Source of the DNA: a virus
Taxonomy: Duplodnaviria > Heunggongvirae > Uroviricota > Caudoviricetes
IMG/VR virus record: IMGVR_UViG_2718217897_000004
Direction: 5' to 3' (one strand)
DNA length: 42,229 bases
The position numbers and the translations under genes are program-made. The notes below the pieces were generated by a model that did no database searches, was not told the DNA's origin, and saw only the letters and a list, made by a program, of their open reading frames with translations. Of this stretch, positions 15,732-16,079 are shown in pieces; position 1 is the first letter of the stretch; the number at the start of each line of letters is the position of its first letter.

Positions 15732-15760
15732 TTGCAACATTGATTTCGTAACGTTATTAT
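15732..15760 (+). promoter_or_regulatory. Sigma70-type promoter for the tRNA cluster
   Basis: TTGCAA, 17-bp spacer, TATTAT, ending 9 nt upstream of the first tRNA. Confidence 0.5.
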
Positions 15761-15769
15761 CCTGCGCCC

Positions 15770-15845
15770 GGCCCTTTAGCTCAGTGGTAAGAGCGAGCGA
15801 CTCATAATCGCCAGGTCGCTGGTTCAAATCCAGCAAGGGCCACCA
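15770..15845 (+). tRNA. tRNA with CAU anticodon, Ile2(LAU)-like (ileX/ileZ-like)
   Basis: 76 nt, acceptor GGCCCTT/AAGGGCC, anticodon loop CTCATAA; resembles recalled ileX. Confidence 0.8.
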
Positions 15846-15846
15846 G

Positions 15847-15923
15847 CCGCCACTAGCTCATCAGGAAAGAGCGTCAACCCTTTAAGTTGAGTGTGCGAGG
15901 TTCGAGTCCCCGGTGGCGATCCA
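15847..15923 (+). tRNA. tRNA-like gene of uncertain isotype (possibly degenerate)
   Basis: Cloverleaf can be drawn but with C1-A72 mismatch, one T-stem mismatch and anticodon loop CCTTTAA (C at position 33; anticodon would be UUU). Confidence 0.4.
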
Positions 15924-15925
15924 GT

Positions 15926-16001
15926 GCCGACTTAGCTCAGTAGGTAGAGCAACTGACTTGTAATCAGTAGGTCACCAGTTCGATTCCGGTAGTCGGCACC
16001 A
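15926..16001 (+). tRNA. tRNA-Thr (anticodon UGU)
   Basis: 76 nt, acceptor GCCGACT/AGTCGGC, anticodon loop CTTGTAA; matches recalled E. coli tRNA-Thr. Confidence 0.85.
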
Positions 16002-16004
16002 TAT

Positions 16005-16079
16005 GCGGGCATCGTATAATGGCTATTACCTCAGCCTTCCAAGCTGATGATGCGGGTTCGATTCCCGCTGCCCGCTCCA
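16005..16079 (+). tRNA. tRNA-Gly (anticodon UCC)
   Basis: 75 nt, acceptor GCGGGCA/TGCCCGC, anticodon loop CTTCCAA; matches recalled E. coli glyT-type tRNA. Confidence 0.85.

Follow-up and report, generated by a model that had tools for sequence, protein, structure and literature searches.

Composition of the tRNA cassette

The DNA described here is the IMG/VR virus record IMGVR_UViG_2718217897_000004 (Caudoviricetes; 42,229 nucleotides, nt), referred to below as the window. It is a lambdoid Escherichia coli prophage, in which positions 15732-16079 hold a promoter and four tRNA genes. These form a post-Q tRNA module, located between the late-gene antiterminator gene Q and the lysis genes. The second gene of the cassette, tRNA2, carries a lysine anticodon on the scaffold of an arginine tRNA together with an uncommon C at position 33, and its origin, maintenance and possible role are considered in the following sections.

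All four tRNA genes lie on the + strand. tRNA1 (15770-15845), of the tRNA-Ile2 type with anticodon CAU, corresponds to ileZ of Shiga toxin (Stx) phages and was called by ARAGORN, Rfam and, as tRNA-Ile, the Prokaryotic Genome Annotation Pipeline (PGAP). tRNA2 (15847-15923) is of the tRNA-Lys(UUU) type on an argN scaffold, as supported by ARAGORN, Rfam, homology to argN and covariation. tRNA3 (15926-16001) is tRNA-Thr(UGU), a copy of thrU, and tRNA4 (16005-16079) is tRNA-Gly(UCC), a copy of glyT; both were recognized by ARAGORN, by Rfam and by identity to the respective K-12 genes. The gaps between the genes are 1, 2 and 3 nt long, and CCA is encoded by all four (ARAGORN). Against the Rfam model RF00005 (gathering score 29), tRNA1 to tRNA4 scored 72.5, 40.5, 73.8 and 64.9 bits; all four values are far beyond chance, and that of tRNA2 is the lowest.

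The upstream boundary of the module is Q itself (14869-15558, + strand; Pfam PF06323 Phage_antiter_Q, E = 2.3e-91). The downstream boundary is the gene of a P21-type holin S (16371-16586, + strand; PF04971, E = 1.4e-35), which starts the lysis cassette and is followed by the lysozyme and Rz genes. A preliminary description of this DNA, made from its letters alone, had reported four tightly packed tRNA genes between Q and the lysis genes and had taken the first, third and fourth as clean tRNAs. ARAGORN, Rfam and Pfam agree with the arrangement, and the Rfam scores with the three clean tRNAs. As a kind, the cluster is already known (post-Q tRNA modules, with a tRNA promoter named pT), and its genes are annotated in hundreds of genomes. 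The cassette would yield a primary transcript of four tRNAs spaced by 1-3 nt, from which the individual molecules could be released by ribonuclease P (RNase P) and 3' exonucleases.

Promoter and terminators

A sigma-70-type promoter, TTGCAA-17-TATTAT, is located at 15732-15760 on the + strand and matches the consensus at 9 of 12 positions. The -10 hexamer is followed by the GC-rich discriminator CCTGCGCCC, and 9 nt separate its end from the mature 5' end of tRNA1. Taken alone, the motif is not significant: four equally good sites occur in 1.2 kb against 1.5 expected. Its conservation, however, can be followed through about 20 diverged upstream haplotypes, all of which keep TTGNNN, the 17-nt spacing, TATTAT and the 9-nt distance to the tRNA, whereas the spacer sequence and the sequence further upstream diverge. 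The promoter is 100% identical in Stx and PPompW phages, and the GenBank record of phage 933W labels the same site 'pT; putative tRNA promoter'. The earlier mention of a promoter is supported by this conservation and by pT of 933W, while the attribute 'near-consensus' is too strong for the match found.

Two hairpins flank the cassette. A terminator-like hairpin with T/A runs on both sides (15619-15648, no strand assigned) lies between Q and the tRNA promoter and is a candidate tR', as indicated by its inverted repeat, a terminator scan and an analogue in 933W. An intrinsic-terminator-like hairpin with a T run (16283-16310, + strand) lies between the cassette and the holin gene (terminator scan, 933W analogue) and probably ends the pT transcripts in the lysogen. 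The 933W record accordingly contains both a 'terminator upstream of tRNA genes' and a 'terminator upstream of the stx genes'. From this layout of promoter and terminators, the cassette could be transcribed on its own from pT, in the lysogen too, and Q-antiterminated transcription of the late genes would run through it as well.

At 15542-15570, across the end of Q, there is another promoter-like site, TTGCAA-17-TATATT; it is a candidate pR', with the hairpin at 15619-15648 after it. The 200 nt from tRNA4 to the downstream terminator are occupied by three perfect inverted repeats with arms of 11, 14 and 9 nt (16086-16131, 16139-16210 and 16209-16263, respectively), for which no Rfam match was found. 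Most cassette copies share the first 40 nt after tRNA4, a stretch that takes in the left arm of the first repeat.

Host-type tRNAs and codon usage

tRNA1 differs from ileZ by one base. The CAU anticodon of Ile2 reads AUA once it is modified with lysidine. tRNA3 is identical to K-12 thrU (76/76) and tRNA4 to K-12 glyT (75/75), so the suggestion that the Thr and Gly genes look host-type proved right to the last base. In an alignment of tRNA2 with host lysT, only 47 of 79 positions agree. The cassette thus combines verbatim host copies for threonine and glycine with a foreign scaffold for lysine. The captured host tRNAs are evolving independently in the prophage. Among IMG/VR loci, nine prophage glyT copies have C6U together with G67A, two acceptor-stem changes that compensate each other, and recurrent changes at A9 are seen in thrU copies.

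Codon counts of the open reading frames (ORFs) in the window were compared with those of 41 K-12 genes. The share of AUA in its codon family is 0.14-0.16 in the phage and 0.04 in the host; the corresponding values are 0.19-0.31 and 0.10 for ACA, 0.18-0.24 and 0.08 for GGA, and 0.64-0.75 and 0.74 for AAA. AUA, ACA and GGA are thus enriched 2-3 times in the phage genes, and the shares of GGG and ACG are also higher there. Ile2, Thr(UGU) and Gly(UCC) fit classical codon supply for AUA, ACA/ACG and GGA/GGG, respectively. The codons AGA, AGG, CGA and CGG are 2- to 9-fold commoner in the phage genes, and the cassette contains neither of the two Arg tRNAs. Codon supply does not explain tRNA2, since AAA is not enriched and the six tRNA-Lys genes of the host encode one abundant species reading both lysine codons.

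Identity and unusual features of tRNA2

tRNA2 reads, element by element, CCGCCAC UA GCUC AUCAGGAAA GAGC G UCAAC CCUUUAA GUUGA GUGUG CGAGG UUCGAGU CCCCG GUGGCGA U CCA. It was called tRNA-Lys(UUU) by all three predictors (ARAGORN, Rfam and PGAP); the Rfam match spans the full model (1-71), and the anticodon TTT stands at position 35 of the 77-nt gene. The core of the molecule is kept, including U8, A14, G18-G19, the T loop UUCGAGU and A37, with C in place of U at position 33. The discriminator base is U73, which comes from argN, and not the A73 recognized by lysyl-tRNA synthetase (LysRS).

Three anomalies had been pointed out in this gene: an acceptor mismatch C1·A72, a T-stem mismatch A51·C63, and the lack of U33 in the anticodon loop (C32-C33-U34-U35-U36-A37-A38). 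On re-reading the sequence all three are present and the base numbering is correct. The label 'degenerate tRNA-like element' or pseudo-tRNA, which had been derived from them, could not be maintained: the predictors agree on tRNA-Lys(UUU), and the gene is an argN homologue with its stems kept. Prediction programs do fold the element as a tRNA with the anticodon UUU; its loop is non-canonical at C33. A processing spacer and a non-canonical decoder, the other readings offered at that time, may be possible, yet they are not the best supported. Examined separately, the three anomalies turn out to be of different kinds.

C1·A72 is due to a rare G72A allele, found in one of about 120 IMG/VR copies, in two of 37 metagenome copies and in one RefSeq genome (100% identity). 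The usual form of tRNA2 ends with GUGGCGG, so that C1 and G72 are paired. As the mismatch is a rare allele, its interpretation as an initiator-like or designed feature was rejected. G72A unpairs positions 1 and 72 in the copy of the window, and tRNA2 may be weakened there.

A51·C63 is a trait of the scaffold, shared by one argN allele and all Lys-type copies, and it was never repaired in a sample chosen independently of the T arm. In 933W, phi296, phi191 and a Yersinia phage this position holds G51·U63, an isosteric wobble pair, and the T stem of host thrU also has an A·C. For these reasons (inheritance with the scaffold, isosteric G·U in relatives, A·C in thrU) the mismatch is not a sign of decay.

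C33 was found in every Lys-type copy (>120 in IMG/VR and 37 in metagenome contigs); in exact-pattern scans of these two collections, U, A and G were never encountered at this position. The adjacent C32 varies, whereas loop positions 33-38 show no drift in >150 copies. C33 is the only family-wide peculiarity among the three anomalies. For a register shift of the loop that would present UUA, an ochre anticodon, no supporting evidence was obtained.

Origin of tRNA2 from argN

The cassette, judged by its gene order and homology, is a derivative of the ileZ-argN-argO module of Stx phages (933W, VT2-Sakai, Stx2a_F349). The two modules share the post-Q site, the identical promoter, the flanking terminators and ileZ as the first gene. 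tRNA2 is 83% identical to the F349 allele of argN and 79% identical to that of 933W, with the same acceptor, D and T arms; it differs from argN in having the anticodon UUU instead of UCG, C33 and the pair A30-U40. In the window, the place of argO (Arg-UCU) is taken by the copies of thrU and glyT, and lysis genes, not stx, come next after the module. The cassette had been set apart from the ile-arg-arg set of Stx-type phages; this is true of the gene content, but the two sets are related, tRNA2 being an argN homologue.

tRNA2 probably arose from argN by a switch of the anticodon from UCG to UUU, accompanied by U33 to C33 and by a compensatory change of G30-C40 to A30-U40. The Arg-to-Lys polarity is inferred from the Arg-type D arm, which is also found in genuine bacterial tRNA-Arg genes. 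When the D-arm pattern was scanned with one genome per species, the Lys type was present only in E. coli and Shigella flexneri, and the scan revealed no deeper homologues beyond ordinary tRNA-Arg genes. As in other remoulded (anticodon-switched) tRNA genes, the family is switched via the anticodon and the ancestral body is kept (Arg-type D arm, A20). In tRNA2, unlike these, the switch is accompanied by the loss of U33, and charging by LysRS is only putative.

The pair G3·U70, by which alanyl-tRNA synthetase identifies alanine tRNAs, is found in part of the argN alleles and in part of those of the Lys type (3' acceptor strand GUGGUGG). It is carried by argN of Stx2a_F349 (L003:1643-1719), by PPompW (L002:1627-1702) and by phage Evi (L182:251-327), whereas the main Lys-type allele and argN of 933W have G3-C70.

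Evidence for structural constraint

The main Lys allele differs from argN of F349 at 12 positions, five of which are in stems, and no pair is broken. The stem changes convert three G·U pairs to Watson-Crick pairs and G30-C40 to A30-U40. With random placement of the same substitutions, all pairs would be kept with P = 0.026, and the 20 Watson-Crick pairs reached with a probability of about 1e-4. The allele keeps 20 of 21 pairs; lost pairing, truncation and drift, by which a pseudogene could be recognized, were not observed.

Comparison of ten diverged homologues leads in the same direction: 96% of the cells are paired, the anticodon stem is 100% paired, and the pairs 7-66, 27-43 and 30-40 have changed on both sides, as against 0-1 in slid controls. 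The covariation score of this set exceeds that of 498 of 500 shuffles. Covariation among close haplotypes alone was not significant, the family being too shallow, and the diverged argN and Yersinia homologues were needed. Within the population, the stem variants of appreciable frequency are C-to-U changes that give G·U pairs, while pair-breaking variants are singletons or nearly so. Single-sequence minimum free energy (MFE) folding gave no cloverleaf for either tRNA2 or argN (z about -1.4), but this is uninformative, as the cloverleaf of tRNA2 lies 2.7 kcal/mol above the MFE and those of host lysT and ileZ lie 2.2 and 2.7 kcal/mol above theirs. On this comparative evidence, tRNA2 is a real, structurally maintained tRNA and not a decaying pseudogene.

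Distribution of the cassette

The 421-bp cassette region was found at ≥80% coverage in 552 of 5,426 complete E. coli genomes (annotated by PGAP as Ile, Lys, Thr, Gly), and a query with the Lys-Thr junction detected 612 genomes in the same set. The cassette is thus present in about 11% of complete E. coli genomes (roughly one in nine). It is also found in induced phages and in several differing upstream and downstream contexts.

In IMG/VR, 112 usable loci chosen by a shared T-arm motif were surveyed. The order Ile-Lys-Thr-Gly is represented by 91 loci, Ile|Lys|Arg(UCU) by 11 and Ile|Arg|Arg by six; one locus has Ile|Thr|Gly only. The intermediate form Ile2-Lys-Arg(UCU) is present in PPompW prophages.

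The 421-bp region is 100% identical to that of E. coli MS8345 (L001), and the genes upstream differ (13500-15560 in the window). MS8345 has a 250-amino-acid (aa) antiterminator and no RusA annotated between DUF968 and Q, whereas in the window RusA is present along with DUF968, and Q is 229 aa long. As the identity to MS8345 ends upstream, the cassette moves as a unit between lambdoid backbones.

tRNA2 as a possible nuclease-insensitive tRNA-Lys

It is tentatively proposed that tRNA2 is a spare tRNA-Lys insensitive to anti-phage tRNA nucleases. The proposal is the preferred reading, plausible and unproven. Nucleases of the host or of a competing element would cut host tRNA-Lys(UUU), and tRNA2 would stay uncut as a lysine tRNA. 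For this, tRNA2 would have to be expressed and lysylated, to lack N6-threonylcarbamoyladenosine at position 37 (t6A37), to resist cleavage and to benefit the phage. The starting points are the gene structure, homology and conservation of tRNA2, the codon statistics, and the absence from it of the published recognition motifs.

Host tRNA-Lys(UUU) is a common target of AriB of PARIS, PrrC and, secondarily, P2 Old (PMC12409363, PMC12445682). The AriB site comprises U36AAUC|A41 and U16: with U39A no cleavage remains, with A41C there is less of it, and U16C impairs it; tRNA-Lys of phage T5 escapes AriB by substitutions at these recognition positions (PMC12409363). At the same positions tRNA2 has U36AAGUU41 (G39, U40, U41) and C16-A17. 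P2 Old, which classically kills lambda, cuts after C in a paired CNG at 28-30/40-42, Toprim nucleases generally cutting 3' of C (PMC12445682). The corresponding stem is CAG/CUG in argN and CUG/CAG in thrU, and it is CAA/UUG in tRNA2 by virtue of the derived A30-U40 pair.

PrrC cuts just upstream of the wobble base, i.e., after nucleotide 33, and favours modified, well-stacked loops; it cleaves tRNA-Arg1 with a UUU anticodon as well as tRNA-Lys (PMC3014915). Since the UUU-bearing tRNA-Arg1 is cleaved equally, the anticodon switch alone would not give escape from PrrC. According to a citing paper, t6A37 is a positive determinant for PrrC (Bacusmo 2018), and a tRNA with U33C is not t6A-modified by E. 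coli TsaBCDE (PMC8887486). As C33 acts as an anti-determinant for TsaBCDE on another tRNA, t6A37 is predicted to be absent from tRNA2. C33 at the bond cut by PrrC, together with the predicted lack of t6A37, could disfavour cleavage of tRNA2 by this enzyme.

Rescue of phages from PARIS and PrrC has been obtained with phage tRNA-Lys but not with that of the host (PMC12409363 for PARIS). tRNA-Lys(UUU) of T5 (Burman 2024; Belukhina 2025) resembles tRNA2 in its non-host scaffold, changed positions 39 and 41, and C16. Unlike tRNA2 with its C33 and U73, it has the canonical U33 and A73, and its resistance to cleavage and its ability to rescue were established by experiment. T5 is also virulent and has about 24 tRNAs, whereas the phage of the window is temperate and has four.

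A parallel is offered by phages SfI, Sf6, ST64T, PS3 and 21, in which Thr(UGU) and Asn(GUU) genes are located just after Q, with no codon rationale for Asn (PMC3636060). Thr and Asn are the other two AriB targets besides Lys, and the pair belongs to the AriB/Old target set. In SfI (L138:939-1094), tRNA-Thr(UGU) has U36AAGCG41, U28-A42 and a G27·A43 mismatch, and tRNA-Asn(GUU) has C39. The SfI tRNA-Thr shows the features described for P2-Old-resistant phage tRNA-Thr, namely an altered CNG and a shortened anticodon stem. These phages differ from the window in several respects: their Asn and Thr genes are not host-like, while the Thr gene of the window is host thrU itself; the scaffolds are unrelated; a Lys gene is lacking; and no pT-like promoter was identified in SfI.

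Observations against the proposed role

A number of observations weigh against insensitivity to nucleases as the role of tRNA2. C33 weakens the U-turn, and a tRNA-Lys(UUU) lacking t6A37 is expected to be a poor decoder. A73 is a major LysRS identity element (PMC3014915), and with U73 the lysylation of tRNA2 may be poor. tRNA2 could simply be a poor tRNA and not a cleverly adapted one. Both G39 and C16 came with the argN scaffold, so that 'resistance' to AriB would be largely a by-product of this foreign body and selection for it is not demonstrable; and the resistant tRNA-Lys of T5 keeps U33, which means that C33 is not needed for escape from AriB. The exact sequence of tRNA2 was not found in the searchable literature. 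PADLOC and Pfam detected no tRNA nuclease or defence system among the accessory ORFs of the window, the matches being at the level of helix-turn-helix (HTH) domains only.

The neighbouring genes do not complete an anti-nuclease kit either. The thrU copy, identical to the host gene, should be sensitive to AriB and Old, and supplying more host tRNA-ThrU protected little or not at all from Old (PMC12445682). For both reasons the idea that the thrU copy is itself a shield against P2 Old or PARIS was rejected.

Other adverse points concern the constraint on tRNA2. Its nucleotide diversity, 0.017, is the highest of the four genes (0.005-0.013 for the others). Its second most common allele (C4U, U8C, C11U) carries the potentially damaging U8C and is left unannotated by PGAP (E. 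coli EC554 and IPCEC31; L177:369-445, L178:369-445), although PGAP does label both the main and the G72A form as tRNA-Lys; annotation-based counts of tRNA2 are too low for this reason. A one-base deletion in the D stem occurs in PPompW prophages, and the copy of the window has G72A. Constraint on tRNA2 exists, but it looks weaker than for a core tRNA.

Finally, Yersinia phage YeP1 (also YeP2/3) has a homologue of tRNA2 that precedes the Ile2 gene and has the same acceptor stem (L004:1501-1578). Its anticodon stem is kept by a compensatory change of 27-43 from U-A to A-U, and all the stems are kept, but the loop CAUUGCC (A33, C37) is unusable. It is annotated as 'tRNA-Pseudo-TTG' and receives no Rfam score at E < 0.01. 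A structural, non-decoding role fits this homologue at least as well as decoding does.

Alternative explanations for tRNA2

The last two groups of observations are those on which the strongest alternative is founded. According to it, tRNA2 is a crippled hitch-hiker or processing element without a role in translation, whose cloverleaf is kept for the release of its neighbours and whose C33/UUU loop is a frozen accident. Besides the high diversity, the repeatedly sampled U8C, D-stem deletion and G72A alleles (the first missed by PGAP) and the non-functional loop of the Yersinia homologue, it draws on the gaps of 1-3 nt in a polycistronic precursor, on C33, U73 and A51·C63 as departures from consensus, and on the lowest Rfam score of the four genes. 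It is only somewhat less probable than the nuclease-insensitive tRNA-Lys. Several facts speak against it. RNase P reads the acceptor and T arms, yet it is the anticodon stem that is kept best, with two compensatory pairs. The loop is free of drift at 33-38 though C32 varies. The replacement of G3·U70 by G3-C70 in the main Lys allele matters only for a charged tRNA. The module would be workable without tRNA2, as the Ile|Thr|Gly locus indicates, and the gene is nevertheless kept in about 11% of E. coli genomes.

Plain dosage, i.e., an ordinary extra tRNA-Lys that helps to decode AAA and AAG in phage genes rich in lysine, could be suggested by the early-region genes, in which Lys codons number 65 per 1000 (46 in host genes), and by the good fit of the other three tRNAs to codon supply, which is also the classical account of post-Q lambdoid tRNAs (PMC3636060). 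It is unlikely, because neither lysine codon is rare and six tRNA-Lys genes exist in the host, while the late genes contain no surplus of Lys codons (52 per 1000) and have an AAA fraction below that of the host. Moreover, copying lysT would have been simpler, as was done with thrU and glyT; instead, a foreign scaffold with C33 and U73 is used, and the Arg tRNAs were given up despite a 4- to 7-fold enrichment of their codons.

A non-canonical or regulatory tRNA, acting as a booster of -1 frameshifting, as an inserter of Arg at Lys codons after charging by arginyl-tRNA synthetase (ArgRS), or as a decoy for tRNA-binding proteins, is highly improbable. Its basis is the tail-chaperone region, where a dnaX-type slippery heptamer A AAA AAG is found at 27960-27966 (junction 27940-27990). 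The G-like ORF (27583-27969) ends with GTT AAA AAA AAG TAG, and its -1 frame is open into the T-like ORF (27981-28271) upstream of the tape-measure gene (28721-31933). Both codons of the slippery site are read by tRNA-Lys(UUU), two of the diverged homologues have a loop without U33, and the Arg-type D arm with A20 is the same as in genuine bacterial tRNA-Arg genes. In its specific form, that C33 makes tRNA2 a dedicated hypomodified regulatory tRNA-Lys(UUU) which would slip at A AAA AAG and set the G:GT ratio, or, in a variant, that its Arg-type body would be charged and deliver Arg at Lys codons once host tRNA-Lys is destroyed, the idea is hardly to be expected to hold. A AAA AAG shifts efficiently on host tRNA-Lys alone, and U35 removes C35, the main anticodon determinant of ArgRS. 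The co-occurrence is a single one (two other loci that reached the tail-chaperone junction were uninformative), and a decoy should keep the nuclease recognition motifs and not lose them.

Other features of the prophage

A tRNA-Ser(CGA) at 892-981 adjoins an integrase ORF (1034-2059) and is the likely attachment site. The small RNA DicF (76.7 bits) is encoded on the - strand at 5392-5443, and a hok/sok locus is located at 12299-12473 (sok, 113 bits). A 179-aa ORF with a YfbU domain (18430-18969, - strand) lies between the lysis genes and the HNH/terminase genes and looks like an inserted accessory gene.

Significance

An anticodon-switched argN with a fixed C33, lacking the published recognition features of tRNA-Lys nucleases, appears to be undescribed. 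tRNA2 is at the detection limit of annotation pipelines, since PGAP calls some alleles and misses others. If the proposal of a nuclease-insensitive tRNA-Lys is false, tRNA2 still documents in detail how an anticodon-switched, half-crippled tRNA is carried along in a mobile module.

Work of 2023-2025 demonstrated that virulent phages such as T5 carry tRNAs that outlast PARIS, PrrC, retron-Eco7 and P2 Old. The classical targets of P2 Old, temperate lambdoid phages, live in the same cells as P2/P4 elements that bring PARIS with them, and the small post-Q tRNA modules of these phages have so far been explained by codon usage only. The anticodon arm of tRNA2 avoids every published recognition motif of three tRNA-Lys nucleases. 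If the proposal is true, tRNA2 would be a natural tRNA that lost the near-universal U33, and probably t6A37 too, for a purpose. The Asn and Thr genes of SfI and P21-type phages, so far unexplained, would then also gain a rationale, and tRNA-based counter-defence would extend to prophages.

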